In this document: positions 1 to 57,028 of the stretch, one piece after another
How the letters are laid out: each line of letters starts with the position of its first letter
Position numbering within the stretch: position 1 is the stretch's first letter
From: Hydrurus foetidus
Lineage: Eukaryota
DNA: 57,028 nucleotides
Assembly: GCA_900617105.1 (NCBI GenBank)
Contig: UYFQ01000125.1
Coordinates: 1-57,028, forward strand
Reading direction: 5' to 3'
Made by a program: the position numbers and the translations under genes
The notes under the pieces: generated by a model
Told to the model about the DNA's origin: nothing
Databases searched by the model: none
What the model saw: the letters and a program-made list of their open reading frames with translations, nothing else

Positions 1-320
1 GTTGGAGTATCCGGAGAAAAGACACTGCTGTAGTTGTATAGTATATGCGTGGATCCCGACGGTCAGCGGTGTGTGCCCTGGGGGTGCAGATCGTGGACCG
101 TTGGATGTGTGGGCTCATGGAGCCATCCATTCATCTATCTTCAACACGGATAGAACATGTGCAATTGCGTTGATATGTAAAGCTTCGTTGCCGTCTTGAT
201 TGATGCCGGTGCACAAGTTTAATTATCAAGTAATTACACAGTACAAAGTCTATTTTACGAGCCTTGGGTCACCGGTCGCACGAGAGTCACAAAGCATCCG
301 GATTCAGAGAAATCCCAACA
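1..320 (+). repeat. 5' LTR, family A copy 1
   Basis: Matches 5115-5434 and 50296-50614; ends in CCCAACA. Confidence 0.95.
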
Positions 321-330
321 TAATTAAACT
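321..330 (+). promoter_or_regulatory. Primer-binding-site position of family A (TAATTAAACT), complementary to its own LTR
   Basis: Abuts the LTR and has no TGG. 320-330 (ATAATTAAACT) is the exact reverse complement of 216-226 (AGTTTAATTAT). Confidence 0.7.
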
Positions 331-346
331 AGATCAGCGCATCGAG

Positions 347-3300
347 ATGCCGCCGAAGAAACAAGAAGAACCAAATCAGCTGCAGAGCAGTGCATGCTGA
401 GAATCGGACGCTACAACAACGTAGTGCAGTGGAGGGAAGACATGCAGAACGAGGCATGCGGCCTGTACGGGATGACCGGCACGTTCTTCACCACCAACAA
501 GAGTTACGTCCATCCGTATCCTCGCGAGGAGGATTACAATCCCACCTTTCAAACGGTGGAAATCGATACCACGACAGCGGGTACCGAAAATGAAGACGAG
601 GACGACGACGAATCCGTAACCTCGAGAATGTCATGATCGGGCCACAGCTTCCACCAGCGCCTCCTGTCGTGTACTCCGAGGCACTAATCGACAAGCTGCG
701 AGCCAATGCGTTCGAGGGACGCCGTAAGGCAGTCGAAACGCAAAAAGTCGATGAGCAAAAGCTCTTTCCACTAATGTGGTCGAGAATGTCGACAGGGTCG
801 AAATCTAAGGTGCGTGAGGAGCCAGGCTTCGAACAGGCACGCCTCAGATTGGACAGTGTGAAACTGTGGGAGTACATTAGAAGGAGTCATCTAACTCACA
901 TTTACGGAGAAGATGACTCGATGAGAGCGATGAATGTGCACGAACAGACCATCAGGTACAACTACCTCAGACAGGGCGAACGAGAGGTAATTGGTGACTT
1001 CAAGACGCGGTTCGATAACCAGGTATCAGCCAACAGAGGTGTGGGTATGACAGAAGTGGAAGAAGCGATTAGAGCAATCGACTTCCTCAGTAAGTTGGAC
1101 CCGAAAAGGTATACCGGTATGTTGACACTAATGCGTAACAACGCTGTACAAAACCTGCCGAATAGCTTCCCTTCTACCTTAGCCGGAGCATACAGGGTAG
1201 CGTCATCCTGGACCAGCTCGGGCGGAGGAGTCCCCCTCGGAGCCGAGCAACATTCCGCGTTTCTGACTGATTCTTTGGTAGGTACAAAGGAAAAAGTCCC
1301 GGGAAAAGGAGCAAAGGGGAAGACTGCGGGAACGAAAAAGAAATCATCGTCAGTGATCTGTTTCGTATGCGGAAAGACGGGACATTTCGCAAGAGACTGC
1401 GAACAACGCAAAGACGGAGAGCATGCGATGCTCACCAATGTCGAGGAGGATATCGAAGAAGACGACGAGAGCATAGAAGCAGCTTTCATCACGACAGACG
1501 AAGTCGCCCTGTTCACTCGAGTCATGTGCTGCTCGACAATCAGGCCTCAGTTAACATCTTTTGCAATCCATCATTGCTGACAGACATTAGGAAATCGCAG
1601 CATGCGATCCTCCTCAACGGAGTTCAGTCTGATGCGAAGAGTGTCCGAGTCGATCACGAAGGCGACTTCGGAGATATCGGACCAGTCTACTTCAGTCGAG
1701 GAGCGACAGCCAACATACTCTCCTTCGCAGCGATGGCAGACAGTGGTGCGGAGATCAGCTACGATCATGAGAGTGGATGCTTCAACCTACGTCCGGCTGG
1801 AAGCAAGACTCTGTACAGCTTCAGCAGGCAGAGTCTGCCAGGGTCGACAGGAAAGTTCTACGTGTGGGATGCGAGAACCACAGCTGGGCAGAAGCATCAG
1901 CGGCAGGAGCAAGCACTGGTGACGACAGTCGAAGACAACATGAGACGGTTCACCAAACGCGAGATTGGACAAGCGGCAGCAGCAAGAGAGCTGCTAGCTC
2001 GGATGGGTTATCCCCCAGTTGAGATGGCTATCGCGATGATCAGAGGCGGCAACAACTTCAGCGTCTCGGAAGCAGATTTCAGAAACGCTCACTCGATCTG
2101 GGGTAAATGTCTCGCCAGTCTCAGGGGGAAGACACACAAGAAATCGTCACCAGCGGCTGACATTTCATTGACACCTGCTCCTGCGCAGCAGCAGCAAGTT
2201 CTGAGTGTGGACATTATGTACTTGGAGACCACAGCGATACTGATCGCGGTTTCAACCCCTCTGGACATGACTCTCGCCGTGAGTCTTATGCGACTCGACA
2301 CTGAGAAGACCTCACGAGCTGCTGCGATTGTGAAACCGGCGCTGAGTGAAATGATATCGATACTCAAATCCAGGAACTTCATAGTGCAAGTCATCATGTC
2401 AGACGGTGAGGGTGCAATCGGCAAAATGAGGCTTGATTTGCTAGCGCTGGGAATCGAGGTAGATGTCAGCGCAGCTGGCGGTCACGTGGCTAGAATCGAA
2501 CGGCGGATTCAGATGGTGAAGGAGCGAGCACGCGCTCACATCAACGGTAGAATTCCATTCACTCCTACTGAACTCTGTCTAACCTACCTAGCTCTATTCT
2601 GCGTCTCCCGCATTAACTGTCAGCAGTCAGGATCAAGGCCAGGGGTCTTTCGCCGAGAGAACTATTTTCAGGACGGAGGGTTGACGGGAACTTGGACTTT
2701 CGTGCCGCCTACGGGGATTATGCCGTTTGTACCGTACCTAATACGAATAACACTATGCAATCTCGAACTGAAGATTGCATTGTAATGCTCCCCACACACA
2801 GCAGAACGGGATCGTTCAAGATGCTCTCACTGGCGACAGGCAAGATCGTGACGAGGGATCAATTCAAGATACTGCCTATGCCGCAGTCGGTCATAGCGAC
2901 GCTGAACGCCATGGCAGTCAAAGAAGGGAAGAAAATAACTCAAACCCAATTGCATGTGTTTGATGAACTACTATTCGCCAACAGTCTAGACAAGTCTAAA
3001 ATGCCATCCTTCATTACAAACCCCCCCACTGTCGAACGGGTATCGGTGGATCACCAACCCACACTCACCGACCTACCATCAGCTGACAGCATTTTCGAGA
3101 TTCCTCCTTCCGATGTGGGGGGTACCAGTCGCAGCCGAAGCTACGCCGCCATCAGAGGAAATCGGAATTGAGGCACTCGAAAGAACTGGGGTGCACGAAC
3201 GTGACCTACCTACACCACCCCTACCTACACCACCCACATCACCGCCTGAACCAGACGACATTTCAGCAGACACACCTGCACCTGAGATCGAACCAGTCCC

Positions 3301-4971
3301 ACAGCAACCAGCACAACCAGTGCAGTCGCCTGTGAGAGAACAACGCAGGGTACCGGTACCAACAGAGCGTATGGTGACGAGGTCAACCCGTACGAACGAA
3401 GATGCGTTCGTGACGAACACAGGGGGTACAGTGCCGAGATCCGCCAACACAGCACCAACCACACATGATGTAGATGAGGTGATGAAGAGGCACAGAGAGG
3501 AGATGGGGAAGAGCAACACTGCCAACATAAGTGTTAAAGAAGCATTTCGCACCAGAGGACACGAAGCGAAGAAAGTCATCGTGTCGGAGCTCAGGCAGAT
3601 GATAGATAAAAGGGTATGGGCGCCGGTGATGGGTGGGAAACTAACGGCGATGCAGAGAGCATCGACCATTCGATCCTCGATGTTCCTCAAGCAGAAGAAC
3701 AACCCGGACGGGAGCTTCCTCAAGCTCAAGGCACGGCTGGTAGCAGGTGGCGACCAGCAAGACAAGGGGCTATATGAGGACCTGTCCTCTCCGACTGTGT
3801 CTACTAGTGCCGTATTCACGTTGCTTGCGGTCGCCGCTCATGAGAAGCGTCGAGTCGCAGTAGTAGATATCAGTGGAGCATACCTCAACGCGGACATGAC
3901 ACTGGACGTGCCAGTGCACATGCGCCTCGATCGCACTGTGACAAATGCGTATTCAACCGGACAGGCACGGACGGGCTTCAGAGCACTGCAGCAGTGCACG
4001 TCGACGACTTACTCATAACAAGTAGGAGCAAGGCCAACGTGACGCACCTAGTCGAGGGACTACGCAAGAGGTACGGTGCAATCACATTATCGCATGGTCC
4101 TGTCGTAAACTACCTCGGGATGTCGATCGACATGCATATATCAGGACAGGCGATGATCACAACCACGGGCTACTGTGACGAGATAGTCAAGATATCGGGG
4201 GTGAAGGGCTCTGCGCGTACACCGGCCACAGAGGGGCTATTCGAGACAAGAGAGGATGCCACCACAGTGATAGAGCCGGTGCGAGTCTGGTTCCACAAAG
4301 TGGTCGCAATGGTGCTCTACTTGGCTAAGCGTACCAAACCGGAGTGCCTAGTGACAGTGGCATTCCTAGCCACACGAGTCAACAAGTGCACGACAGACGA
4401 CGTGGACAAGCTACAGCGTTTGGTGCGTTACATATACGCGACAAGGGACAGCGGCGTATTGCTGAGGCCGGGTGCAGGAGGTATCACGGTGAGGCTATTC
4501 GTTGATGCGTCCTACGGTGTGCACAGCGATGGACGGTCACACACGGGAAGCTGCGTGGTAATTGGAGACGTCGGAGCTGTGCACTGTCGATCATCGAAGC
4601 AGCTGATAGTTACGAAGTCGAGTACGGAGGCCGAGCTGGTAGGGCTGTCCGACTCAGCTAACCAAGGCATATTCATTCGTACTTTTCTCATCGCACAGGG
4701 ATACGAGATGGAGCCGGTGGTCATCTATCAAGACAACCAGTCTTGCATGGCGCTAGTGGAGCGCGGCAGATCCGGGGCGGAGCGCACACGCCACATCCAG
4801 ATCCGATACTTCTGGGTTAAAGAGCGAGTGGACACTGGCGAGGTGCGGGTGGAGTACTTACGCAGCGAGGACATGTACGCGAACGTACTAACCAAGCCAC
4901 TCCAGGGGGCCCAGTTCCAGAGGGAGAGAGACGGACTCACGGGATGGCCCACGGTGGACGAGAAGAATTAA
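347..4971 (+). pseudogene. Family A gag-pol, frameshifted, with an internal RT deletion
   Basis: Start MPPKKQEE at 347; knuckle CFVCGKTGHFARDC; protease VLLDNQASVNIF; integrase LSVDIMY/SDGE/IERRI; RT KARLVAGG, VDISGAYL, HVDD; RNase H FVDAS, SSTEAE, QDNQ, ANVLTK. Split over ORFs 394-636, 633-1580, 1367-2785, 2692-3171, 3113-4018 and 3994-4971. Confidence 0.93.
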
Positions 4972-5114
4972 GGGTGCCAGCGAGGAAGACATCCCGCCAT
5001 TCGATAACATTTAGTTAGACATTACTGCTTGAAAAACAATTCACATCTATTTATTGCTGACATGAAAATCCAATGCGTGCCTGGGTGCTTCAACTACTGC
5101 GTGCCTGTTGGGTG

Positions 5115-5434
5115 TGTTGGAGTATCCGGAGAAAAGACACTGCTGTAGTTGTATAAGTATATGCGTGGATCCCGACGGTCAGCGGTGTGTGCCCTTGGGG
5201 TGCAGATCGTGGACCGTTGGATGTGTGGGCTCATGGAGCCATCCATTCATCTATCTTCAACACGGATAGAACATGTGCAATTGCGTTGATATGTAAAGCT
5301 TCGTTGCCGTCTTGATTGATGCCGGTGCACAAGTTTAATTATCAAGTAATTACACAGTACAAAGTCTATTTTACGAGCCTTGGGTCACCGGTCACAGGAG
5401 TCACAAAGCATCCGGGCCTAGAGAAATCCCAACA
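5115..5434 (+). repeat. 3' LTR, family A copy 1
   Basis: TGTTGGAGTATCC...CCCAACA; a few substitutions and indels versus the 5' LTR, mostly near its 3' end. Confidence 0.95.
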
Positions 5435-6500: not shown

Positions 6501-7454
6501 TTACACAAGAAGCACTCCGTTTATGCATCCGTCCAATTCGGGGTTGTTGGTAATTTGAGCGTATTTGCCCCACACGACCTTTCCAGACTGAGTCACTAAA
6601 CCAAGTTCACTTACATTTACTTCAACAATTGTACCCTTCGTTATCACCCCAAGATTTGTATAAAGTGCGCTGGAGGGATTTTTCTTTACTCCGAGAATAT
6701 CGAGGCAAAATGTGGTTTTCAGTTCCGGGTGTGTAATATGAGCTTTCTTGAATCGAAGTCCTGTTGGACGGATGAACCTCTCGTACTTCGGTGCCATTCG
6801 AGTGAATGAGTCACCGACAAAAGTCACCTTCGTTATCATACGTTTCCAACTCTTCTTCATTCTTTTCCCTGATTTCATTTGTCTGAACATTTCATCATCG
6901 GCGATAGGCTTCACTTTCGGAATTGGCACAGTCCATTTGCCAGCCTTATCTTTGCGCTTCTGTTTCACGGTGTTCGATAATATTTTTGCTCTGGATACTT
7001 CATCACGATCGAGCAGATATGCTGGTAATGTGCTATCATTATCCTTGTCATCATTTGCGTGCTTGTTAGATCCCTCGTTATGCAGAGCGAGGGTCTTTCT
7101 CATCGCAGCCTTCTCTTTAAACCTCTTCGCATTAAACAGTTTGGCTCTAAGACCGAAACTTCTCTGCGCGAACTCGGAGACTTTATGCACCTGACGTGCG
7201 TCTCTCTTCCTCTCTCTTTCCATTTTGTCCATCCTGACACCGAACCTCTTTCGGTGCCTTTCCATGTGCTCATGTTGTGGCTGTTAATAGAATTGAGATA
7301 TACAGAAATTAAGGATTCCGCTTCAAGGACAAATAATCATATCGGACAGTGTGAGGTTGAGTCGCTTGTCGCAGATATGTATAAAATTGGATGTTAGGTA
7401 ACTGGTGCAGAGAGAAGCGTCACAGTACAGAAATGTAACCCGTAGACGCACCAT
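6501..7454 (-). CDS. NSA2: 60S ribosome biogenesis protein NSA2 (predicted exons 7454-7452 and 7280-6501; 260 aa)
   Basis: Conserved NSA2 motifs [48 protein letters not shown]...INGVLLV. The N-terminus [10 protein letters not shown] is restored by a GTGCGT...TAACAG intron at 7451-7281. Confidence 0.95.
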
Positions 7455-15500: not shown

Positions 15501-18500
15501 CACATCACTACTTCTATCGCAATCGCCATCCATGTGTCTGCAAATTATCCATCGTATTGATGTGCCAACCCCCTATAAGTTATCATGAATTCGCATCACT
15601 AATAATCTCTGCACTCTCTCTGCTGATCTCTCCATTCTTTTTCTTTTTTTTCTCTTACTGTCGTAAAGCTTTGTTGTTTCAAATCAAATCTCTCCGTTTT
15701 CTCCTCTCATTTCCTGTCACAACTTCTACTCTATCACTCTCCATTCACCACCCCTTACTCTCACTTCATCTCCTATTTTCTTTCTTTCCCCTCCCTCACC
15801 CTCATCCTCACTAACTCTATTTTTTCTCTTTCTCTTTCTCTTTTTCATTTTTTAAGATTTGACGACAGACTACTACGCGGTAGCTTCATTGACTACTGCA
15901 GGCAGGATTATCATCGTTGGCTCATCAGGTAACCTAAATCAATTAGTCTATATCTTGGTTTCCATCCCGAAAAGATGGCATAAAAGAGCCATTCTTATTT
16001 GTCACCAATTTTATTTTGTGTGGTATCACTGAATATTTGCGCCATACAAATTAATTTTGTCGTGGTACGTTCCTATTTCAATCAAGCTCTCACATCTCCC
16101 AAGCATTGAGGACATATTTCCTCATTATATTGTAATTTTCGATACTTTTGGACGCACAGGAACGGTCGCGTACAGCTTGAACGCACTGGCAACAACACCG
16201 ACATTTGTGTTTCCTAAGAAAGTCACCTCAAGTGAGTTACTGTCTAACTATTGCTGTCTCTTTTTTGACTCGATCTCTGAATGACTGTTGATCTGACTTT
16301 GTTGATGACTGACTGACTGACTGACTGACTGACTGATGACTTGACTGACTGACTGACATGATGACTGACTGACTGACTGACTGACATGATGACTGACTGA
16401 CTGACTGACTGACTGACTGACTGACTGACTGGCTGACTGACTGACTGGCTGGCTGACTGACTGACTGACTGACTGGCTGGCTGACTGACTGACTGACTTT
16501 ATGTCATCCAGTGCCACTGGCACAATCAACTTATCGACTCATCTCACCACCATCCTCTCATTCCTTGCATATCTCAGATCATCTGTACTGCATCGCAAGT
16601 CAAGGAAGTAGCTATGCGATCGCTGCCGGCGCCGCTAGTACTATCATACAAACGAGAAATGCAGGTGTGTAATTGTTGAGCACCCCGTATATTCACTTTC
16701 AAGTGCAAACCGACAAATACAAGTGTGCGAGTACATTTATCTATGCAGTAAGTGTCTAATAGATGGTACATTGAAGTGGTTAAGATACAGTGTATGCCAC
16801 TGTATGAGTGTATGAGTGTACATGAACAGCAATATCACTCTAATCCATCACGCTGCACTTGATGTTGTTATCTCATACATGCGCATATTAGAAATAGACA
16901 TCATACATACACATATTCATACATACACACGCACGCTTACATACATTCACGTACGTATTTTTCATACAGGAGTATCCTGGACATTATTACCGGTAGATCA
17001 AGCCGTAATTAGCAGTAACTCCGACTTTCAGTTTCACGCTGTGACAGTGCTGACCCAAGCAGTGGCGTACCTTTCTGGGTCGAATGGCATCATTATAAAG
17101 ACAGGTGTGATGGGGCAGAATGTAGCACAGGATGTGAAAGTGAAGAGTTAGATGGTGGTGTGGAGAATTGATCGAGGGAAAGAGAGAGAGAGAAAAAGAA
17201 AGAAAAAGAAGAGAGAAAAATGGGTTGGAGAAAAAAAGAAGAGAGTGAGAGAAAGAGGAGATGATATTTGAGAGTGGTGAAAAAAATGATTGGCACAGTG
17301 CATTCCCATGAAATTAAACAGTTCACTGCGACTCTAAAATGCCGAAGAGACGAGACGCCATCCATTCTTCTCCTTTATCATCCTTCTTTTCCTTCCTCCT
17401 TTTTCCTTTTTTTCTTCTTTTCTCTTACGCTCCTTCATAGCCTGTTCGTCACAGAAGCTCAAGGCACGTGCTTGATTACCGGTCCATTTTAATGCTGAAC
17501 CCACGCCTATTATCCACAATGCACACAATTTAACAGTTAGTGTGTGTGTTGTGGTTTATAAAGTGGGTCCAGCATCAAAATGGACCGGCAATAAAACACA
17601 TTCTTTAATTAAATTGGACTCTCACTTCTCTTAATTAAATTCAATCGTTAAATTCATTTTATATTATTTCATTCCTCTAGTGAACTCTGGTCGAACCTTT
17701 ACGGTTGAAACCGTATTGACGAATGTAGTAAACTCCAATGGGGGTACACAAATCAACGCTATTTCAATGTTCAATAGCTTGATCGGTGTGGCGTTGGATA
17801 GTGCAGGTACGACCTGCCAATGTCAACGAATATTGCTTGCCCTATCCTACTCTTACTTGGCTCTATGACGCACTCTTTAACGCTTCGGCGGCAGGCGTGT
17901 CTGCTATTCTCATAGTCATTTACTGCACTTTAATCAACGTACTCACTTGTCAACTTCAGTCTCTAACTACCACTAACTCTTACTACTTTTACTATTTCCA
18001 GCTTCATGTCCATCCTTTCCCCATCTCTCAGCCCATCTCGTTCCCCCACAGCAACACCTAGCAGAGTACGTAAAGCAAATTGGACGAAACTGCTATATCT
18101 CACTGTGAATTCTTTTTGAATTGAAAAGTGGATCCTTTTGTCTTCAACACGATAGACGCATACAACAGCTCCTTCCTATTTTACACATTATCATTTCTCT
18201 CCTCATTATTCCTTCCCTAACTGCTGCTGTCATTACCATTTATGATCCTTGCTGCTACTGTCATTATTATCATCATCAGATAGGATTCAGCACCCACATA
18301 TTACATCTTACTCTTACGTTACTTCGTTTCCATTTCCTTACTTTACAGCAAAATTTAAACCGCTGAGATTCATCTAAACTAACCTTTGACTACTATTTCC
18401 CATTATAACTACTATCAGACTCCTAGCGGTACACCTTCACTCACTCCAACCCCACCGCCATCAGCAGGTCAGTGAGATAATCAATCTGTGACGATCATAT

Positions 18501-36522: not shown

Positions 36523-36813
36523 TGTCGGGATTCGGCGGTAATCCAGAAACGGAAAACGGTAGAAACAGAATTGGTTTTTAAGTTTACCGAGTGAAAGATT
36601 GTGATTGTGGAATGGAAACGATGAGGTGAATCGAGTGGAATGAATGCAATTGAAATGGACAATGTGTAGCTGTTGGAGAACTGGTCGCGACCAGTTCTCT
36701 TCTGAACTGCTTCAACGTGGAAAGATCGGATCGTCATCGTGCCGTTGGGACCGCTCGGTTGTTCGGTGAGCATTGTGTTGTGTGTTTGTGTTTGAAATGA
36801 CAATGCAATGACA
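36523..36813 (-). repeat. 3' LTR, family B
   Basis: Same sequence as 41844-42134. Confidence 0.97.
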
Positions 36814-41830: not shown

Positions 41831-41843
41831 CTTAAAAACCAAT
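41831..41843 (-). promoter_or_regulatory. Primer-binding-site position of family B (ATTGGTTTTTAAG), complementary to its own LTR
   Basis: Plus strand 41831-41844 CTTAAAAACCAATT is the exact reverse complement of 41890-41903 AATTGGTTTTTAAG. Confidence 0.75.
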
Positions 41844-42134
41844 TGTCGGGATTCGGCGGTAATCCAGAAACGGAAAACGGTAGAAACAGAATTGGTTTTT
41901 AAGTTTACCGAGTGAAAGATTGTGATTGTGGAATGGAAACGATGAGGTGAATCGAGTGGAATGAATGCAATTGAAATGGACAATGTGTAGCTGTTGGAGA
42001 ACTGGTCGCGACCAGTTCTCTTCTGAACTGCTTCAACGTGGAAAGATCGGATCGTCATCGTGCCGTTGGGACCGCTCGGTTGTTCGGTGAGCATTGTGTT
42101 GTGTGTTTGTGTTTGAAATGACAATGCAATGACA
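41844..42134 (-). repeat. 5' LTR, family B
   Basis: Same sequence as 36523-36813; flanked by TSD GAGAC. Confidence 0.97.
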
Positions 42135-43007
42135 GAGACAGCAGAGTCTCAGCGGCTAAAAAAAGCGGGACACGGTAGTACACAGTGAACGATGATTTAT
42201 CAGTGATTTATCCGATTTCGTTGAGTTTTCGCTGCGGTATGGTACAGTATCTGGTATCTAGGGTACTGTATGACCTGTAAATCAATATCAACGGTGTAGA
42301 CGAACGATTGCACGGAGGCATGAATCGACTGAGAATAGATCGGCTGACTATCCCGTCTGAATTAGATAGACCTAGAAATGATATGATAAGAATCCGGAGG
42401 ATTGAAACAACCCTCATAAATTAATAAGTGTGCAGCGTACAGTCAATCACGAGGTGGTTAAAACGACCCCATGAAAGTGTTGGATTCTCAAAGCCTGAAT
42501 GCCAAATTATTGACAGTCAGAATTGATAGGTTAGAGATCTTTGCAGACTGGATCAAAGTTGATGATCATCATCGGCTACTATAAATTTAAGCTCTTTAAT
42601 TATCCGAAAAACCTGCCACTTTGACACTGTCTCAAATCCAATCGCCTCTGGTACAATATTTAATTCAAGTGTCCAAAAGTACGGTAATGTTTCAACATGG
42701 CGTTGAAGACGTATTGTGTACTTTTTATTGCATAAAAATCAAAGCTGTACTTGACAAATATCGGATATCTAGTTTGAATCGTCTGAAAGGCTTGTCTAAA
42801 CTACAATGTCTACGATCAACAAATACTCTCACTTTTGTTTCGTATTGTTGCTTTTCGAGATTAATGTATGTATTACCGCGCGTGACGATTAGTAACTAAA
42901 AGGTCTGGTATTACGCTCCGTATCAAAACGGTGCCCAACTTAACATTCCGGCTTTCAACACTATGGATTTGGTTGACTGTAACTGCTGTAGGTGTTGCGT
43001 CCTGAAG

Positions 43008-44042
43008 CAAGGGGGTATAAAAGGAGAGGGGGCGGTTTCGAGACCCATCCCCACTCAAATATTTCTCACCAACCCCTCACCAAATTTTCAGAATTCTGAA
43101 CTACCCGCGGTCATAGTATGGTGCAGTGCGAAGTACCGCATAGTCAAAGAGATTTCAGCCTGTGGGAGCAACTGCGAGCAACTCCACTCCTGAGTAACTC
43201 AAATCTAACGAGGGCTCAATGTTTTATTTCTTACAGCACATGAAACACGTTGTAACTTAAAAATGTCTATCTATTCTATAAAAATCAGCCTTATTTTGTG
43301 GCTGCACAACCGAGACTGCCAATTGCAGGAGCGATCAGATCCTGCAGCAGATCCTAAAATTCCCAATACGTCAAGCCTTTAGAGAGCTATCCAGATGTCC
43401 TGTTAGCCCTGATCGAAGTATAGAAGAGTTGAATACCATGAAATCAATTCCTCGCCAAACAATGCTCGAAAAACAGTTCAACGGCAGTCGAGCAAAGGAT
43501 CACTACCTTCAGCCACGATAAACATCTTCTCGGACATGGTATCGTCGTCCCAGTACATTTTAAACTGTTCGCCTGTAGAATTTGTTACAGCAATGCAGAG
43601 AAAATTAGGTGAAAGTAGACGGCAAATTTTTCGAAATCAATAACTTCATGAATATTGAACTGTGCCTTGGCAAATTCAGGTAATAGCTTTGTTGTGGATA
43701 AGTTGAGCTTTTACCTGAATCTGCCAAGGTGACGATCAGTATTCGAATTTTGACCTCATCAAGCGAAGCTTACCATGATGGGGAAGAACCAAATGGCGAC
43801 ATCCGTCGCAGACAAAATTCGTTGAACTGATGGAGTGGAAAATTATAACACACTATCGCGGCCAATGGACGATGACGCGCTGCAGTTTCTGGGCTTGCTA
43901 CATGCTGCCAAAGTGGAGGTTGAATTCAGCATTCATGATGTCGACTGCACTCGGGTAGTTCAGAGTTGAGTGAAGGCTTGGTGAGAAAAATTTGAGTGGG
44001 GATGGGTCTCGAAACCGCCCCCTCTCCTTTTATACCCCCTTG
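43008..44042. mobile_element. Non-autonomous DNA transposon (1035 bp), 65-bp TIRs, 7-bp TSD; possibly P-superfamily
   Basis: 43008-43072 and 43978-44042 are inverted repeats with 1 mismatch (CAAGGGGGTATAAAAGG...). CCTGAAG flanks both ends (43001-43007, 44043-44049). No long internal ORF. Confidence 0.9.
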
Positions 44043-44239
44043 CCTGAAGCGTGCCAGATCAATGCAGACGTAGACTGATACTCACGTTACACCAACGTCA
44101 CGCATAAGTACAACGCATACGTAGCCCTGAAATTTGACCTGTCCATCCAAAGGGACACACGATGAAAATGTGTCCACTGTTGTAGCATCTCCAAATATAC
44201 TGCGATGTAGTTCCGTCGCGAGGTTACTTCTAAAGAGCT

Positions 44240-46970: not shown

Positions 46971-49900
46971 TCATGCAGACAGGAGTGATGACTCAGCGAC
47001 AACATTAAGTAGCCACTGCTTCAATTGATTGTCCTCCATCTTCGTCATACGGGAGGCATCTATGCGGCGCACAACCACTCCTCTGGACTTTAAGTACGCA
47101 TCTCGCAGCTTGCAGAAATTGATCTTCTTCTCCTGCCTGTGGTGTATGCCGTCCACCTCGATATTGATCACTAGCCATTTGCCTTCAGACGATGCTTCGG
47201 CTTCATCGGTCTTACCAAAGAATGGTATACGAACTACAATGTCACTCTCGAACATATCGAACAAGTACTCGTTGCTAGATACCGTTACTCTAGTCTGTCC
47301 CAATATCTCTACGGCGGCATGATGCATCCTCTTCTCTACCTTTGATGTAAAGTCATCCATGTATTCGCCCTTTGTCATCCTGCGGCGATGCTCGCTACAG
47401 ACCGAGTCAGAGAATTTCGTCCACAACTCATAATTAGTGTCATCAAGAACGTCACGCCTAAAGGGAATGCACAGTAGCACTGCTTGACCGACACTCAACA
47501 AGTCAAGTCTGCTCATGCGATTCACCTCTGTTAAAGCCATTGTGTGGCGTAGAAGAACAGCCAATATTCCAACGCAAAGACGACTGCTCATACTCTGCAT
47601 GCCGTACAATGCGTTGCCTACTGCCTGAGCGTCGAGTGACTCCTTGCAGCTGTGCACCTTATCCGACAGAGCTGATATCATCGATCGCACTTCCACATGA
47701 TCACTGCTCATACTCTGCATGCCGTACAATGCGTTGCCTACTGCCTGAGCGCTCAGTGACTCCTTGCAGCTGTGCACCTTACCCAACAGAGCTGATATCA
47801 TCGATCGCACTTCCACATGATCACTGCTCATACTCTGCATGCCGTACAATGCGTTGCCTACTGCCTGAGCGCTCAGTGACTCCTTGCAGCTGTGCACCTT
47901 ATCCGACAGAGCTGATATCATCGATCGCACTTCCACATGATCACTGCTCATACTCTGCATGCCGTACAATGCGTTGCCTACTGCCTGAGCGTCGAGTGAC
48001 TCCTTGCAGCTGTGCACCTTACTCAACAGAGCTGATATCATCGATCGCACTTCCACGTGATCACTGCTCATACACTGCATGCCGTACAATGCATTGCCTA
48101 CATTCTGAGCGCTAAGTGACTCCTTACAGCTGTGCACCTTACCCAGCAGTGCTGATATCATCGACCGCACTTCCACATGATCACTGCTCATACACTGCAT
48201 GCCGTACAATGCATTGCCCACTGCCTGAGCGCTAAGTGACTCCTTACAGCTGTGCACCTTACCCGACAGTGCTGATATCATCGACCGCACTTCCACATGA
48301 TCACTGCTCATACTCTGCATGCCGTACAATGCGTTGCCTACATTCTGAGCGTCGAGTGACTCCTTGCAGCTGTGCACCTTACTCAACAGAGCTGATATCA
48401 TCGATCGCACTTCCACATGATCACTGCTCATACTCTGCATGCCGTACAATGCGTTGCCTACTGCCTGAGCGCTCAGTGACTCCTTGCAGCTGTGCACCTT
48501 ACTCAACAGAGCTGATATCATCGATCGCACTTCCACATGATCACTGCTCATACTCTGCATGCCGTACAATGCGTTGCCTACTGCCTGAGCACTCAGTGAC
48601 TCCTTGCAGCTGTGCACCTTATCCGACAGAGCTGATATCATCGATCGCACTTCCACATGATCACTGCTCATACTCTGCATGCCGTACAATGCGTTGCCTA
48701 CTGCCTGAGCGCTCAGTGACTCCTTGCAGCTGTGCACCTTACCCAACAGAGCTGATATCATCGATCGCACTTCCACATGATCACTGCTCATACTCTGCAT
48801 GCCGTACAATGCGTTGCCTACATTCTGAGCGTCGAGTGACTCCTTGCAGCTGTGCACCTTACTCAACAGAGCTGATATCATCGATCGCACTTCCACATGA
48901 TCACTGCTCATACTCTGCATGCCGTACAATGCGTTGCCTACTGCCTGAGCGCTCAGTGACTCCTTGCAGCTGTGCACCTTATCCGACAGAGCTGATATCA
49001 TCGATCGCACTTCCACATGATCACTGCTCATACTCTGCATGCCGTACAATGCGTTGCCTACATTCTGAGCGTCGAGTGACTCCTTGCAGCTGTGCACCTT
49101 ACTCAACAGAGCTGATATCATCGATCGCACTTCCACATGATCACTGCTCATACTCTGCATGCCGTACAATGCGTTGCCTACATTCTGAGCTCTCAGTGAC
49201 TCCTTGCAGCTGTGCACCTTATCCGACAGAGCTGATATCATCGATCGCACTTCCACATGATCACTGCTCATACTCTGCATGCCGTACAATGCGTTGCCTA
49301 CTGCCTGAGCTCTCAGTGACTCCTTGCAGCTGTGCACCTTACTCAACAGAGCTGATATCATCGATCGCACTTCCACATGATCACTGCTCATACTCTGCAT
49401 GCCGTACAATGCGTTGCCTACTGCCTGAGCACTCAGTGACTCCTTGCAGCTGTGCACCTTACTCAACAGAGCTGATATCATCGATCGCACTTCCACATGA
49501 TCACTGCTCATACTCTGCATGCCGTACAATGCGTTGCCTACTGCCTGAGCGTCGAGTGACTCTTGACATTTTTTTATCATGATTGTAATGCTGCCAAGTA
49601 GCTCTAATGATTGACGTGTTTTCAATTTGTTGTTCTGCAGTCCAAGCAGAGCCATCGATATTGAATGGGAAGGTACTGCCTCTCTGTTTTGAGTCGACTT
49701 TACCAGAGCTGCTGTCATTGAAGCCACAACAGCTAGATATCCATCGTCGTCCTCTACTAAGCACTGCAGACCATACAGAGTAGCAGAGATATCGATAGGT
49801 CTCCAAGAAGCCGATGATAGAATCTCAACCTGTGACGCAATAGCTGGCAGGTGACGTTTTAAATGAAAGTGGGATTTGTTCCCAGATGATTTCTTCCCTG

Positions 49901-50051
49901 TGATGCGCATGAAGTCCGATATCTCACGTACAGTACATCCAGGCTGCCATTCCTCCACGTACGCATCATCAATTTTAGACGATTTACCACCGGAAGATGA
50001 ATACATGAATTTGCGCTTATGAATGCCCTCCACCGCATCGCGCAACGCCAT
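46971..50051 (-). CDS. Tandem 40-aa helical-repeat (OPR-like) protein with C-terminal RAP domain, 1026 aa
   Basis: Unbroken ORF with 2 degenerate plus 16.5 near-identical repeats ESLxAQxVGNALYGMQxMSSDHVEVRSMISALxxKVHSCK. C-terminal SDIV...NIEVDGIHH...KLRDAYLKSRGVVVRRI matches the RAP/DUF559-like pattern. A possible splice acceptor just before the ATG means the N-terminus may be incomplete. Confidence 0.85.
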   Translation of the reverse strand: MALRDAVEGIHKRKFMYSSSGGKSSKIDDAYVEEWQPGCTVREISDFMRITGKKSSGNKSHFHLKRHLPAIASQVEILSSASWRPIDISATLYGLQCLVEDDDGYLAVVASMTAALVKSTQNREAVPSHSISMALLGLQNNKLKTRQSLELLGSITIMIKKCQESLDAQAVGNALYGMQSMSSDHVEVRSMISALLSKVHSCKESLSAQAVGNALYGMQSMSSDHVEVRSMISALLSKVHSCKESLRAQAVGNALYGMQSMSSDHVEVRSMISALSDKVHSCKESLRAQNVGNALYGMQSMSSDHVEVRSMISALLSKVHSCKESLDAQNVGNALYGMQSMSSDHVEVRSMISALSDKVHSCKESLSAQAVGNALYGMQSMSSDHVEVRSMISALLSKVHSCKESLDAQNVGNALYGMQSMSSDHVEVRSMISALLGKVHSCKESLSAQAVGNALYGMQSMSSDHVEVRSMISALSDKVHSCKESLSAQAVGNALYGMQSMSSDHVEVRSMISALLSKVHSCKESLSAQAVGNALYGMQSMSSDHVEVRSMISALLSKVHSCKESLDAQNVGNALYGMQSMSSDHVEVRSMISALSGKVHSCKESLSAQAVGNALYGMQCMSSDHVEVRSMISALLGKVHSCKESLSAQNVGNALYGMQCMSSDHVEVRSMISALLSKVHSCKESLDAQAVGNALYGMQSMSSDHVEVRSMISALSDKVHSCKESLSAQAVGNALYGMQSMSSDHVEVRSMISALLGKVHSCKESLSAQAVGNALYGMQSMSSDHVEVRSMISALSDKVHSCKESLDAQAVGNALYGMQSMSSRLCVGILAVLLRHTMALTEVNRMSRLDLLSVGQAVLLCIPFRRDVLDDTNYELWTKFSDSVCSEHRRRMTKGEYMDDFTSKVEKRMHHAAVEILGQTRVTVSSNEYLFDMFESDIVVRIPFFGKTDEAEASSEGKWLVINIEVDGIHHRQEKKINFCKLRDAYLKSRGVVVRRIDASRMTKMEDNQLKQWLLNVVAESSLLSA
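47583..49562 (-). repeat. Coding 120-bp tandem array, 16.5 units
   Basis: Exact 120-bp periodicity, visible as alternating near-identical 60-nt lines; no indels seen. Confidence 0.98.
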
Positions 50052-50295: not shown

Positions 50296-51866
50296 TGTTG
50301 GAGTATCCGGAGAAAAGACATTGCTGCAGTTGTATAGTATATGCGTGGACCCCGACCGTCAGCGGTATGTGCCCTGGGGGTGCAGATCGTGGACCGTTGG
50401 ATGTTTGGGCTCATAGAGCCATTCATTCATCTATCTTCAACTTGGATAGAACCATGTGCAATTGCGTTGATATGTAAAGCTTCGTTGCCGTCTTGATTGA
50501 TGCCGGTGCACAAGTTTAATTATCAAGTAATACACACTACAAGTCTACTTTTACGAGCCTTGGGTCACCGGTCGCACAAGTCACAAAGCATCCGGGCTTC
50601 GAGAAATCCCAACATAATTAAACTAGATCAGCGCATCGAGATGCCGCCGAAGAAACAAGAAGAACCAAAGTCAGCTGCAGAGCAGTGCATGCTGAGAATC
50701 GGACGCTACAACAACATAGTGCAGTGGAGGGAAGACATGCAGAACGAGGCATGCGGCCTGTACGGTATGACAGGCACGTTCTTCACGACCAACGAGAGTT
50801 ACGTCCATCCGTATCCTCGAGAGGAGGATTACAATCCCACCTTTCAAACGGTGGAAATCGATACCACGACGCGGGTACCGAAAATGAAGACGAGGACGAC
50901 GACGAATCCGTGAACCTCGAAAATGTCGAGATCGGGCCACAGCTCCCACCAGCGCCTCCTGTAGTGTACTCCGAGGCACTAATCGACAGACTGCGAGCCA
51001 ATGCGTTTGAGGGACGCCGTAAGGCAGTTGAAACGCAAAAGCTCTTTCCGCTTATGTGGTCGAGAATGTCGACAGGGTCGAAGTCTAAGGTGCGAGAGGA
51101 GCCAGGCTTCGAACAGGCACGCCTAAGATTGGACAGTGTGAAACTGTGGGAGTACATCAGAAGGAGTCACCGAACACGCATTTATGGCGAGGATGACTCG
51201 ATGAGAGCAATGAATGTGCACGAGCAGACAAACAGGTACAACTACCTCAGACAGGGTGAGCGAGAGGTAATCGGCGACTTCAAGACGCGCTTTGATAACC
51301 AGGTATCGGCCAACAGAGGTGTGGGCATGGCAGATGTGGAAGAAGTGATTAGAGCAATCGACTTCCTCAGTAAGTTGGACCCAAAAAGGCATACCGATAT
51401 GTTGACACTGATGCGTAACAACGCTGTACAAAACCTGCCGAATAGCTTCCCTTCCACCTTAGCCGGAGCATACAGGGTGGCGTCATCCTGGACCAGCTCG
51501 GGCGGAGCAGTCCCCCTTTGCGCCGAGCAACATTCCGCGTTCCTGACAGATTCTTTGGTAGGCACAAAGGAAAAAGTCTCGGGAAAGGGAGCAAAGGGGA
51601 AGACTGCAGGAACGAAGAAGAAATCATCGTCAGTGATCTGTTTCGTATGCGGAAACACAGGACACTTCGCCAGAGATTGCGAACAACGCAAGGATTCGGA
51701 GCATGCGATGCTCACCAATGTCGAGGAGGACATCGAAAAAGATGACGAGAGCATAGGAGCAGCATTCGTCACGACAGACGAGTTCGCCCTGTTCACTCGC
51801 AGTCATGTGCTGCTAGATAACCAGGCGTCTGTAAACATATTTTGCAATCCGTCATTGCTGACGGAT
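50296..51866 (+). mobile_element. Family A copy 2, 3'-truncated (5' LTR 50296-50614, gag from 50641, ends inside protease)
   Basis: Closely matches 1-~1585; same PBS TAATTAAACT at 50615-50624; homology stops after VLLDNQASVNIFCNPSLLT. Confidence 0.95.
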
Positions 51867-54189
51867 TGCACGTACGTATGTACGTGTGTACGTGACCATA
51901 CAAGTGTACGCTATGCTACATGCGTGCGTACGTACGTACATATTGACCATGTACGTGCATGTGTAAGTACATGTGTGTGCGTATGCATATAATAATTTGT
52001 ACTAACATATGCACGTACGTATGTACGTGTGTACGTGACCATACAAGTGTACGCTATGCTACATGCGTGCGTGCGTACGTGCGTACGTACATATTGACTA
52101 TGTACATGTGTAAGTACATGTGTGTGCGTATGCATAAATGAGTATGCACTAACATGTGTAAGTACGTGTGTACGTGTGCATGTTATCATATCTGCATGTG
52201 TACTTACATACGTACGTGCCGCATAACGTACATGTATATATTTGTAACTATATTTGCAACTACATTACTACAGACATAGCTTGATAGAATCAAGTGGTCT
52301 GACACTCCCCGTAGTGAAGATGTAGTGTAAAATAATGCATGTTTACTTATGAGCTACCTTTATAATATTAGAATTAACATAGTATATGTGTGATCAAGAC
52401 AAATACAATATTAAAACATAATTAGTATAGTGCTCTTTAAAGATTTCGTCTCTGAGACTGATCTATAATTTGATTTAGAAGTTTATTAAATATTGGTTGA
52501 GAAACTCTTTTTGTACCAATATCTGAATTATTATCGCTTTAACAACTACGCAAGTACCATCAGCAACCTTCTCTTTGACCCAGTTTTCGGTGAGGTCGAG
52601 GTGCCGTAGGTTGCGTGTCATGTGTGCTGCCTTAGAATGGTATATACAGGCTTGGTTGTCTTCTTCAATAGAGGTTGGACCTTGGACCCATCCCATCATG
52701 TTTAGGATGCCTCTGTTGGCTATGACCTCTGCTTTGAGTGTGTGGTTGACAGCCTTGATTTCCGACTCTGCCGTTGATGTTGATATGCTGCCTTGGTCGG
52801 TGGAACACCAGCAGATAAGGTTACGGCCGAGGTATCCAAGATATGCAGTCTGGGAGTGGCTATTGTCGGGATTACCACCCAAATCTGCATCGCATTGAAA
52901 CCGGAGTTGGAGTAGCGTTGTCATAGTCTCGATGTCTCTGGGTCCATCGTGTCCATGGAACACTAGTCGATCACTTCGTGCGTACTTGCAGTACTGCAGT
53001 AAGTGTTTGAGGAATTTGATATGTCTGGGACCTGGGTTGTTACTATAACGGGACAGTACATTGAGTGCATACAGAATGCCGACCATGGTATGTACCATAC
53101 CGTGCATTAGTTGACCCACGACCCTCCTGTACGGGTACTTCATACACTGCATACGTTCCTCAGGGGTAGAAGCGTTGTCTAGTTTTGACAATGCAGGTTC
53201 TTGGTCCCCATTTGGGTATCGTAAGTGCATGTCCTTTGCACCAGATATATTAGCTTCTTTTATTATTGAACCAATCATGCGATGTTGATCCATATAATAT
53301 GTGCCATCTTCATCACGCTGAATACGAATACCAACGAACTCCTTGTCAGTTGCATCAGTGACTTCATACTTGTGTGCATTGAAGGTGGCGATGATCAGAT
53401 CCTATTCATCAAGTTTGTCCGAAGGACCAAACCATCTGAAGTCATCACTGTGACCAATGATAAGCATGGGTCTACCATCTGTGGTCCATTTAAAGAAGAA
53501 CTTGAGGTCCCAGGGTGTGTTCTTGTAACCACACTCGAAGATACAAATATCAAACTCAATGGAAAAGTTTTGCCCTGCAGGTGGGAATCCATAAAGATTG
53601 CCGACAGCCTGAAAGCAGAAACCGGGTGGGCAAGTGTATCCCTGCGGTGTCTTTATGTGCACCGGGAAGTTAACATTTGCTCTTGTAATGAGGTAAGCAC
53701 CAATGAGGTCACCTCCTTTCATTACTAGTCCATATGCTGCTGCAATGCTTAGTGCCATCTTGATGGAACACGATGATACATTTCCGCAGTATACGGCGTC
53801 GGGGTCGAAGTCCACGAGTGGTATCATCATATCTCCCCGTCCCACTAAACGGGCTTTTTTCGTACCGTCGGTTTTTATACTAAAAAGCCACATCATTGGT
53901 ACCAGGTGTTCGTCAATGTATGGTACTAATACATGTAAACATGAGTTCTTCTCGAATTTCTTTAATTCAGTATCTATTGCGTTTTTCCATTCAGGAGTAG
54001 CCATAGCTTTCCAGAATGATTTTGGCACATTTAGTTGATCGAAATTGATGAATATTTTTTCGTGATGACTTGCTTCAATCAATGAGAGAAAATGTTCGTG
54101 ATTTCTATCATGTGTAGAGTACCAGTAGACAGCATCGTCATTTTCAATGTTTTGAATTGGTGTATTAATACCAATGTCATTATCATCGA
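51867..54189 (-). mobile_element. Copia family C, older degenerate copy: RT-RNase H, PPT and truncated 3' LTR (51867-52304)
   Basis: Near-duplicate of 54933-57028. TGG>TAG stop at 53402-53404 and a 10-bp deletion near 52537. On the minus strand, PPT GGGGAG is followed by TGTCAGAC. Confidence 0.92.
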
Positions 54190-55233
54190 TGTAAGACTAA
54201 ATACAAGATGTCACCTTCTAGCGTTCGCAGCGAAGGTGAAGAAGCAGCTGCAGGCTACCGTTTCAATTCAGTGAGCTATCGAGTAGACGAAGCTGTGAAG
54301 TATAACGTATTAAATTCTGATTAGAGTTTACAGATAGCCACGCAAAAGAGCTATCGGAACAGTTCATGACAGTGAAACTACCTTGAGACAAAGTTCACAG
54401 CGAGATGTGTTGTTCATAGCATGTGCTTGAGGAACGTTGCATGAATGCTTATAGTAACGAAGTGTTTTGGCGATACTGAAGAATCATGAAAGGCGAACGT
54501 TCATTTGCGTGAGGTCAGAGGGTTCGTACTAACTGCTACATGGCGATAGTACAGGGGTACGTATGCGTGTATATGTATATGAACGTACATGCGTGATTAA
54601 CCACTATATGGCGATAATGCGGGTACATGTATGTAGAACGTATGGGTAAGTGCAAGAGTTATCCACGTATGTACACCTATATACATCTATGTACTACGCT
54701 ATTGGCGATCATTCATACGTACATATTAGGGCTATGGCATACGTAATGGCGGTACGTTGTGCGTAATGTGTATTTGTACTGGCTTGTATGCGTACATGTG
54801 CGTGTGCGTGACCATGCAAGTGTACGCTTTACGTGCGTATCTGCGTGCGTACGTGCGTACGTGAATAATGACGCATTACGTAATGTAGAATACAATGTGA
54901 TGCGTGTATATATAATAATTTGTACTAACATGTGCACGTACGTATGTACGTGTGAGCGTGACCATACAAGTGTACGCTATGCTACATGCGTGCGTGCGTG
55001 CAACGTACGTACATACATATGACTATGTACGTACATGTGTAAGTACATGTGTGTACGTATGCATAAATGAGTATGCACTAACATGTGTAAGTACGTGTGT
55101 ACGTGTGCATGTTATCATATCTGCATGTGTACTTACGTACGTACGTGCCGCATAACGTACATGTATATATTTGAAACTATATTTGCAACTATATTACTAC
55201 AGACATATCTTGATAGAATCAAGTGGTCTGACA
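54190..55233 (-). repeat. 3' LTR, family C, containing degenerate TACG/TGTA tandem repeats
   Basis: TG...CA ends with an imperfect terminal inverted repeat; its right part matches ~51990-52304. Confidence 0.85.
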
Positions 55234-55365
55234 CTCCCCGTAGTGAAGATGTAGTGTAAAATAATGCATGTTTACTTATGAGCTACCTTTATAATATTAG
55301 AATTAACATAGTATATGTGTGATCAAGACAAATACAATATTAAAACATAATTAGTATAGTGCTGT

Positions 55366-57028
55366 TTAAAGATTTCGTCTCTGAGACTGATCTATAATTT
55401 GATTTAGAAGTTTATTAAATATTGGTAGAGAAACTCTTTTTGTACCAATATCTGAATTATTATCGCACGATTTAACTTTAACAACTACGCAAGTACCATC
55501 AGCAACCTTCTCTTTGACCCAGTTTTCGGTGAGGTCGAGGTGCCTTAGGTTGCGTGTCATGTGTGCTGCCTTAGAATGGTATATACAGGCTTGGTTGTCT
55601 TCTTCAATAGAGGTTGGACCTTGGACCCATCCCATCATGTTTAGGATGCCTCTGTTGGCTATGACCTCTGCTTTGAGTGTGTGGTTGACAGCCTTGATTT
55701 CCGACTCTGCCGTTGATGTTGATATGCTGCCTTGGTCGGTGGAACACCAGCAGATAAGGTTACGGCCGAGGTATCCAAGGTATGCAGTCTGGGAGTGGCT
55801 ATTGTCGGGATTACCACCCAAATCTGCATCGCATTGAAACCGGAGTTGAAGTAGCGTTGTCATAGTCTCGATGTCTCTGGGTCCATCGTGTCCATGGAAC
55901 ACTAGTCGATCACTTCGTGCGTACTTGCAGTACTGCAATAAGTGTTTGAGGAATTTGATATGTCTGGGACCTGGGTTGTTACCATAACGGGATAGTACAT
56001 TGAGTGCATACAGAATGCCGACCATGGTATGTACCATACCGTACATTAGTTGACCCACGACCCTCCTGTACGGGTACTTCATACACTGCATACGTTCCTC
56101 AGGGGTAGAAGCGTTGTCTAGTTTTGACAATGCAGGTTCTTGGTCCCCAGTTGGGTATGGTAAGTGCATGTCCTTTGCACCAGATATATTAGCCTCTTTT
56201 ATTATTGAATCAATCATGCGATGTTGATCCATATAATATGTGCCATCTTCATCACGCTGAATACGAATACCAACGAACTCCTTGTCAGTTGCATCAGTGA
56301 CTTCATACTTGTGTGCATTGAAGGTGGCGATGATCAGATCCCATTCATCAAGTTTGTCCGAAGGACCAAACCATCTGAAGTCATCACTGTGAGCGATGAT
56401 AAGCATGGGTCTACCATCTGTGGTCCATTTAAAGAAGAACTTGAGGTCCCAGGGTGTGTTCTTGTAACCACACTCGAAGATACAAATATCAAACTCTATG
56501 GAAAAGTTTTGCCCTGCAGGTGGGAATCCATAAAGATTGCCGACAGCCTGAAAGCAGAAACCGGGTGGGCAAGTGTATCCCTGCGGTGTCTTTATGTGCA
56601 CCGGGAAGTTAACATTTGCTCTTGTAATGAGGTAAGCACCAATGAGGTCACCTCCTTTCATTACTAGTCCATATGCTGCTGCAATGCTTAGTGCCATCTT
56701 GATGGAACACGATGATACATTTCCGCAGTATACGGCGTCGGGGTCGAAGTCCACGAGTGGTATCATCATATCTCCCCGTCCCACTAAACGGGCCTTTTTC
56801 GTACCGTCGGTTTTTATACTAAAAAGCCACATCATTGGTACCAGGTGTTGGTCAATGTATGGTACTACATGTAAACATGAGTTCTTCTCGAATTTCTTTA
56901 ATTCAGTATCTATTGCGTTTTTCCATTCAGGTATAGCCATAGCTTTCCAGAATGATTTTGGCACATTGAGTTGATCGAAATTGATGAAGAGTTTTTCGTG
57001 ATGACTTGCTTCAATCAATAGAGAAAAT
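55366..57028 (-). CDS. Family C pol, RT-RNase H portion (5'-partial, intact frame)
   Basis: KKARLVGRGD, GDLIGAYL, NLYGFPPAG, HSDD, YPYRRVVGQL, CDADLGG, STAESE, EEDN, SDIGTK. Confidence 0.93.
   Translation of the reverse strand, partial: FSLLIEASHHEKLFINFDQLNVPKSFWKAMAIPEWKNAIDTELKKFEKNSCLHVVPYIDQHLVPMMWLFSIKTDGTKKARLVGRGDMMIPLVDFDPDAVYCGNVSSCSIKMALSIAAAYGLVMKGGDLIGAYLITRANVNFPVHIKTPQGYTCPPGFCFQAVGNLYGFPPAGQNFSIEFDICIFECGYKNTPWDLKFFFKWTTDGRPMLIIAHSDDFRWFGPSDKLDEWDLIIATFNAHKYEVTDATDKEFVGIRIQRDEDGTYYMDQHRMIDSIIKEANISGAKDMHLPYPTGDQEPALSKLDNASTPEERMQCMKYPYRRVVGQLMYGMVHTMVGILYALNVLSRYGNNPGPRHIKFLKHLLQYCKYARSDRLVFHGHDGPRDIETMTTLLQLRFQCDADLGGNPDNSHSQTAYLGYLGRNLICWCSTDQGSISTSTAESEIKAVNHTLKAEVIANRGILNMMGWVQGPTSIEEDNQACIYHSKAAHMTRNLRHLDLTENWVKEKVADGTCVVVKVKSCDNNSDIGTKRVSLPIFNKLLNQIIDQSQRRNL

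Follow-up and report, generated by a model that had tools for sequence, protein, structure and literature searches.

Probable Self-Priming of Reverse Transcription in a Copia Retrotransposon Family from a Likely Chrysophyte Host

The Ty1/copia element that opens the window (the whole 57,028-nucleotide stretch of DNA analysed here) probably primes reverse transcription with its own RNA in the manner of Tf1, a reading to which we give a probability of about 0.8 from comparisons of sequence. The preliminary description of this DNA had proposed that the RNA folds back to prime itself, and the proposal gains support from relatives in which an arm of the long terminal repeat (LTR) has changed jointly with the primer-binding site (PBS). 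The duplex between these two segments is a real feature of the element and is likely functional.

Element A1 (1-5434) is a Ty1/copia LTR retrotransposon with an RVT_2 domain, TG...CA LTRs and a CCHC gag. The parts of A1 and of a second copy in the window, A2, are as follows.

1..320, forward strand: 5' LTR of A1, ending in CCAACA, 96.9% identical to 5116-5434
173..181, forward strand: TATA-like nonamer TATGTAAAG, weak
214..216, forward strand: CA dinucleotide directly before the arm; its context resembles an initiator in degenerate form, with a start predicted at 215 or 216
216..226, forward strand: LTR arm, the predicted self-primer; 11-bp complement of 320-330
320..330, forward strand: PBS position (321-330) plus the terminal A of the LTR; complement of the arm at 216-226
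347..1580, forward strand: gag with CCHC zinc knuckle, broken by frameshifts; its N-terminus agrees with relatives
1367..3171, forward strand: protease and integrase region, frameshifted, upstream of the reverse transcriptase (RT); motifs read by eye
3113..4971, forward strand: reverse transcriptase (RVT_2, Copia type, E = 1.3e-9) and RNase H, frameshifted
5110..5114, forward strand: short G-rich stretch before the 3' LTR (PPT position); relatives have similar GGGGTG ends
5115..5434, forward strand: 3' LTR of A1, with a copy of the arm at 5332-5342
50296..51865, forward strand: copy A2, with 5' LTR to 50614, arm at 50513-50523, PBS at 50614-50624, and gag; 91.9% identical to 1-1584 and interrupted at 51865

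The first T of the A1 5' LTR is lost at the window edge; A2 and the 3' LTR both have it. The protease and integrase region (1367-3171) has no Pfam or PDB match, and an Atlas look-up of its open reading frame gave no result. In the three runs, which behave like DNA, the LTR is covered hundreds of times as deeply as host sequence (where depth is flat at about 95-200 in runs X1 and X2), which suggests many family-A copies but does not give a copy number. Loose ends at 320-333 in DNA runs X1 and X2 also reveal family-A copies with a G at 321, the first PBS base, and an altered LTR end.

The element that interrupts A2 (51866-57028, reverse strand) is a third RVT_2-bearing one, with 2.9-kb units that are 96% alike and ACGT-rich repeat arrays. 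Its RT and RNase H (RT-RH) region is just 21% like that of A. Other repeats in the window include a 1026-aa open reading frame on the reverse strand (46971-50051) that is built from a 120-bp unit repeated about 17 times (copies 91-97% alike) and whose Pfam matches look like repeat artefacts. A 132-bp imperfect palindrome occurs at 17468-17599. An inverted pair of about 100 bp (43007-43107 with 43952-44043), its members about 1 kb apart, is possibly a small DNA transposon.

Two statements of the preliminary description hold as they were made: that 320-330 pairs perfectly with 216-226 over 11 bp, and that the sequence following the 5' LTR lacks TGG. The two segments are exact reverse complements, and in 5000 dinucleotide shuffles of the LTR an 11-bp match never arises. 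Neither copy 1 nor copy 2 has a TGG in the 15 nt that follow the LTR. When 528 internal positions are taken as a mock PBS, none reaches 10 bp, and within the window both 11-mers are confined to LTR or PBS copies of family A. Divergence of the 3' LTR into its flank puts the LTR end at 320, so that ten paired bases (321-330) lie outside the LTR and the eleventh is its terminal A. Element A thereby fits the rule of at least 10 bp for a self-primer given in PMC6317226, with 10 bp from offset 0 and 11 with the terminal A.

The duplex of A consists of A-U pairs throughout except for two (-7.6 kcal/mol). The predicted probability that the arm pairs with the PBS is 0.70-0.97 in 20 of 21 transcript ranges and 0.00 in one. 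The fold of 216-345 as a whole is no more stable than shuffles (z = -0.27). The same pairing occurs in A2 (50513-50523 with 50614-50624). It had been cited as intact in a diverged copy, and both arms are indeed identical, but its support is weak at 92% overall identity with no arm changes; since both arms are unchanged, A2 shows no covariation. The TATA-like sequence placed about 35-40 nt upstream of 216 is likewise present as the nonamer at 173-181, but by eye it is not evident at the same place in relatives, and we dropped it as promoter support.

A second Copia family of the window is represented by element B (reverse strand, 42134-36523), which has a 5-bp target-site duplication and carries the following features.

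41844..42134, reverse strand: 5' LTR of B, 100% identical to 36523-36813
41890..41903, reverse strand: LTR arm of B, 14 nt, pairing with the B PBS
41831..41844, reverse strand: PBS position of B plus the terminal A; 14-bp complement of the arm, reached by 0 of 5000 shuffles
36523..36813, reverse strand: 3' LTR of B, identical to the 5' LTR

The last A of the B LTR and the next 13 nt are perfectly complementary to LTR sequence that lies 60 nt ahead of the LTR end. The register is that of A and the letters differ. The two elements are 28% identical in the aligned RT-RH part, and a midpoint-rooted tree without named references places B outside all of the fetched loci. B is a less clean case because its PBS has a TGG at offset 2 and its arm lacks an initiator-like motif. 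The coding region of B is frameshifted although its LTRs are identical, which may reflect recent lesions or read errors.

The survey of relatives drew on 98 loci from an RT-RH alignment, mostly with 38-64% identity in the best segment. Several of them have a single open gag-pol frame. Of the 98 loci, 66 offered an LTR-leader segment of 100 nt or more that could be used, and 32 did not. In the first pass the 3' arm was anchored at any ACA or GCA, and a locus was called significant at p <= 0.05 against its own shuffles; 36 of the 66 loci were. At least 11 perfect pairs occur in 30 loci, compared with 2 in a direct-repeat control. The duplex starts at -1 or 0 from the ACA or GCA end in 33 of the 36 (four offsets were allowed). 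The LTR end of most relatives was placed from the ACA motif and not from flanks. It is set by flank divergence in one locus (L043), where a 15-bp duplex starts exactly at the LTR end.

Searches with other designs find the same signature. An anchor-free search near the gag ATG gives at least 10 bp in 33 of 57 loci and in 1 when the direct orientation is used. When arms and PBSs are swapped among loci, 57 of 4556 cross pairs reach 11 bp, compared with 32 of 68 self pairs. Blind anchoring by terminal repeats worked in 20 of 50 loci, with several anchors clearly wrong, and 12 of the 20 are significant. A second pass, which has no null of its own, adds duplexes of 10-22 bp in 11 of the other 30 loci and the 15-bp duplex of L043. 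Both passes together yield a duplex in 48 of 66 loci, the 12 second-pass ones being without a null. The first 47 duplex loci form 45 groups at 90% and 42 groups at 80% protein identity.

Ten loci have only an 8-9 bp or unclear match (L003, L004, L014, L016, L017, L023, L026, L036, L045, L081). Eight lack the LTR, the PBS or the start of gag and are thereby beyond judging (L011, L021, L027, L044, L059, L087, L093, L098). One of the 36 significant loci is probably spurious (L012), with 213 nt before the ATG and no initiator motif. A tRNA-like stretch seen by eye in the LTR of L022 was not confirmed by ARAGORN or Rfam. A locus search based on gag found nothing in metagenome or viral contigs, and an RT-RH search of viral contigs also found nothing.

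Some further observations concern individual relatives. The PBS of L028 and L043 begins with C at the 5' LTR end, where a terminal A is expected. This A is present in the 3' LTR of L043, which indicates that the junction can lose or shift it. Downstream of pol, three loci (L027, L044 and L087) have inverted repeats of 17-20 bp with a common TACAGTAC core and loops of 30-35 nt. Loci L080-L098 are eukaryotic Copia contigs within bacterial MAGs of a genome collection, probably through binning contamination.

A chance match of the 11-mer in A might be considered, as it is AT-rich and copy 2 adds no covariation. The shuffles of its LTR, the recurrence of the signature in a second family of the window and the 36 significant relatives leave this explanation almost no weight, and as a reading of the lineage we consider it refuted by the anchored, anchor-free and swap comparisons of the relatives.

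The preliminary description had named covariation of the two arms across relatives as a check, and such covariation is found: PBS and LTR arm change together, so that the complement is kept while the letters differ. Two double-sided changes separate L008 from L015 (83% RT identity). One, within the 8-bp core, separates L016 from L017 (94%). Three loci that are 85-89% alike in RT-RH (L034, L035 and L040) have different duplexes of 22, 19 and 25 bp, and the joint turnover of arm and PBS among them is very fast. Across relatives the duplex ranges from about 9 to 25 bp. Only at PBS positions 2-5 do the loci have letters in common, in the form of a bias towards AATT (21-29 of 38 per position).

Covariation is evidence of pairing and not of priming. 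The duplex might therefore be selected for a structural role, such as packaging, dimerisation, translation control or closing of the leader, with another molecule acting as the primer. Fungal GalEa elements set a precedent for this, as they keep a hairpin at the PBS position that has no known role according to PMC5445492. We nevertheless consider a structural role unlikely. The duplex in the relatives occupies exactly those bases from which minus-strand synthesis has to begin, and the PBS bases vary between families, which leaves no constant site for another primer. Furthermore, the other arm starts at an initiator-like motif.

The AATT bias could also be read by a host RNA, in which case a tRNA, half-tRNA or tRNA fragment would prime through this core and the LTR complement would be secondary. 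The TGG of element B might be taken in the same sense, as might the reverse complement of 321-338, which by eye we take to resemble the 5' end of a tRNA. Half-tRNA PBSs without TGG do exist among Copia elements, as described in PMC6317226 and PMC5445492. Priming of this kind is very unlikely here, however, since the 36 significant loci contain 35 distinct PBS 10-mers and no TGG. TGG is also absent from the 20 blind-anchored relatives. The PBS of A pairs over at most 9 nt with any of 67 other segments and over 11 nt with its own. No Rfam match occurs in 1-700 at E <= 10, which is a weak test for so short a stretch, and near the LTR of B there is one sub-threshold chance match only. The window contains no tRNA gene.

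A position for the RNA 5' end is suggested by the sequence at which the LTR arm begins. In 22 of the 36 loci the arm starts at, or one base after, the A of TCA (2.2 expected), and six more of the 36 have only CA there. Pairing beyond this motif falls to 87 of 360 positions (24%). The motif resembles the initiator-like consensus proposed for diatoms, TCAH(+1)W (PMC4686930). It was not used in the first-pass searches, so it provides separate evidence that the arm may correspond to the 5' end of the transcript. In element A the context is ACA, a degenerate fit rather than TCA, and its transcription would start at 215 or 216.

Self-priming might instead follow another route: a transcript with its 5' end further upstream might be trimmed on both sides, or a second, co-packaged RNA might supply the primer. 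When the RNA is extended back to 190, an additional imperfect stem can form upstream of 216, and pairing in cis and in trans look alike in sequence. The fold from 190 is no better than shuffles (z = 0.06), however, and in relatives the pairing ends at the initiator-like motif. We regard this route as extremely unlikely.

Self-priming by the 5' end of the element's own transcript would proceed in a few steps. RNA polymerase II would start at 215 or 216, and the first 11-12 nt of the RNA would pair with 320-330 and close a loop of about 93 nt. By analogy with Tf1, the element's own RNase H would then cut after about nucleotide 11, and the freed 3' end could be extended by RT into U5. More speculatively, the PBS may be recopied from the self-primer in each cycle, and such recopying would explain the fast joint turnover of the two arms.

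Element A keeps the DD of RT and three acidic positions of RNase H, and all of the 68 aligned relatives conserve the latter three. At the fourth RNase H position (about 4882-4884 in the window), which belongs to the motif ADxxTK described in PMC5445492, the clade of A has Asn. This residue occurs there in 67 of the 68 close relatives and, across the tree, in 30 of 101 rows. The median duplex is 10 for loci with Asn (n = 15, the subclade of A) and 14 for loci with Asp (n = 43), a comparison that sets aside nine loci (L043 among them) and amounts essentially to one contrast on the tree and not to a test.

The label CoDi, which the preliminary description had attached to relatives of family A, is not established, as a neighbouring host gene points to a chrysophyte and not a diatom.

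6501..7265, reverse strand: host NSA2 gene (Ribosomal_S8e), with chrysophytes as the nearest named relatives

The NSA2 protein is 91% identical to a cluster that includes a Hydrurales protein; its identity is 86% with Epipyxis and 83-84% with Paraphysomonas, Chromulina and Mallomonas. Proteins of raphidophytes, Parmales, oomycetes, xanthophytes and eustigmatophytes are 74-79% identical, and one protein labelled Ectocarpus is 83% identical. Because the best matches are chrysophyte (a best-hit ranking, not a tree), the host is likely a chrysophyte rather than a diatom. The Atlas cluster nearest a family-A gag is eukaryotic with Bacillariophyta commonest, a label that comes from only 2 members of known phylum.

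Experimental demonstration of self-priming comes from Tf1, a Ty3/gypsy element, and among Copia elements one plant lineage is covered by prediction only. If the reading offered here is true, aquatic protists carry a tRNA-free, multi-copy Copia group, and the mechanism works with RT and RNase H of the Copia type. This would bear on whether hairpin or self-priming preceded tRNA priming, a question raised in PMC3601003. The natural series of 9-25 bp duplexes offers ready substrates for studying how RNase H chooses its cut site. Annotation tools that require a tRNA PBS would miss or mislabel such elements.

Element A is not the first Copia element for which self-priming has been put forward. The earlier framing of Copia elements as typically tRNA-primed overlooks PMC6317226, which predicts self-priming for the plant lineage TAR (89% of 203 elements) and cites a like proposal for Houba and Osr-1. 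A literature search that left out most subscription papers, the source for Houba and Osr-1 included, found no paper on self-priming in stramenopile Copia elements. This window contributes a likely chrysophyte host, the occurrence of the signature in two deeply diverged families next to each other, and the initiator-like anchor. As PMC6317226 describes them, TAR elements resemble A in being Copia elements whose PBS, within 0-5 bp of the LTR end, is complementary to their own 5' LTR over 10 bp or more, and in that self-priming is predicted from sequence only. They differ in their plant host.

The Tf1-type elements of the Ty3/gypsy group, namely Tf1 and Tf2 of Schizosaccharomyces pombe, Tj1, Tf1/sushi and Tcn1, share with A a complement of about 11 nt between LTR and PBS and the lack of a tRNA, as described in PMC7175516 and PMC4600332. 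In these elements the duplex also abuts the LTR end. They are separated from A by their RT, as A is a Copia element (RVT_2) and no member of Tf1/sushi. The mechanism has been shown for Tf1, in which RNase H cuts between bases 11 and 12 (PMC7175516), whereas for the lineage of A it is deduced, and the lineage has duplexes of variable length that turn over fast.

The CoDi elements of diatoms resemble A as Copia elements in a stramenopile (PMC2806351, PMC2774666) and differ in the diatom host, in contrast to a likely chrysophyte. The main texts of both papers contain no match to tRNA or self terms for priming. In fungal GalEa elements the Conserved Hairpin Site (CHS) pairs with a partner that lies 12-41 bp downstream, and the authors saw no complement in the LTR (PMC5445492), whereas the partner of A lies in the LTR, and downstream, in 336-400, A offers no partner of 4 nt or more. 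The GalEa site is nevertheless like that of A in having no tRNA PBS and in a motif that includes the last A of the LTR, and one CHSeq1 form has the AATT core seen in the lineage of A (PMC5445492). GalEA and CoDi both belong to Copia Branch 1 (PMC2774666). It is possible, as a tentative extension, that a broad stramenopile Copia radiation, reaching past the diatoms into golden algae, acquired self-priming separately from Tf1 and TAR, with A and B using it together in one genome. An initiator-anchored primer of 9-25 nt would then be recopied into the PBS in each cycle and both arms would turn over together. If the AATT core is common to these elements and the GalEa hairpin, priming without tRNA may be old in Copia Branch 1.
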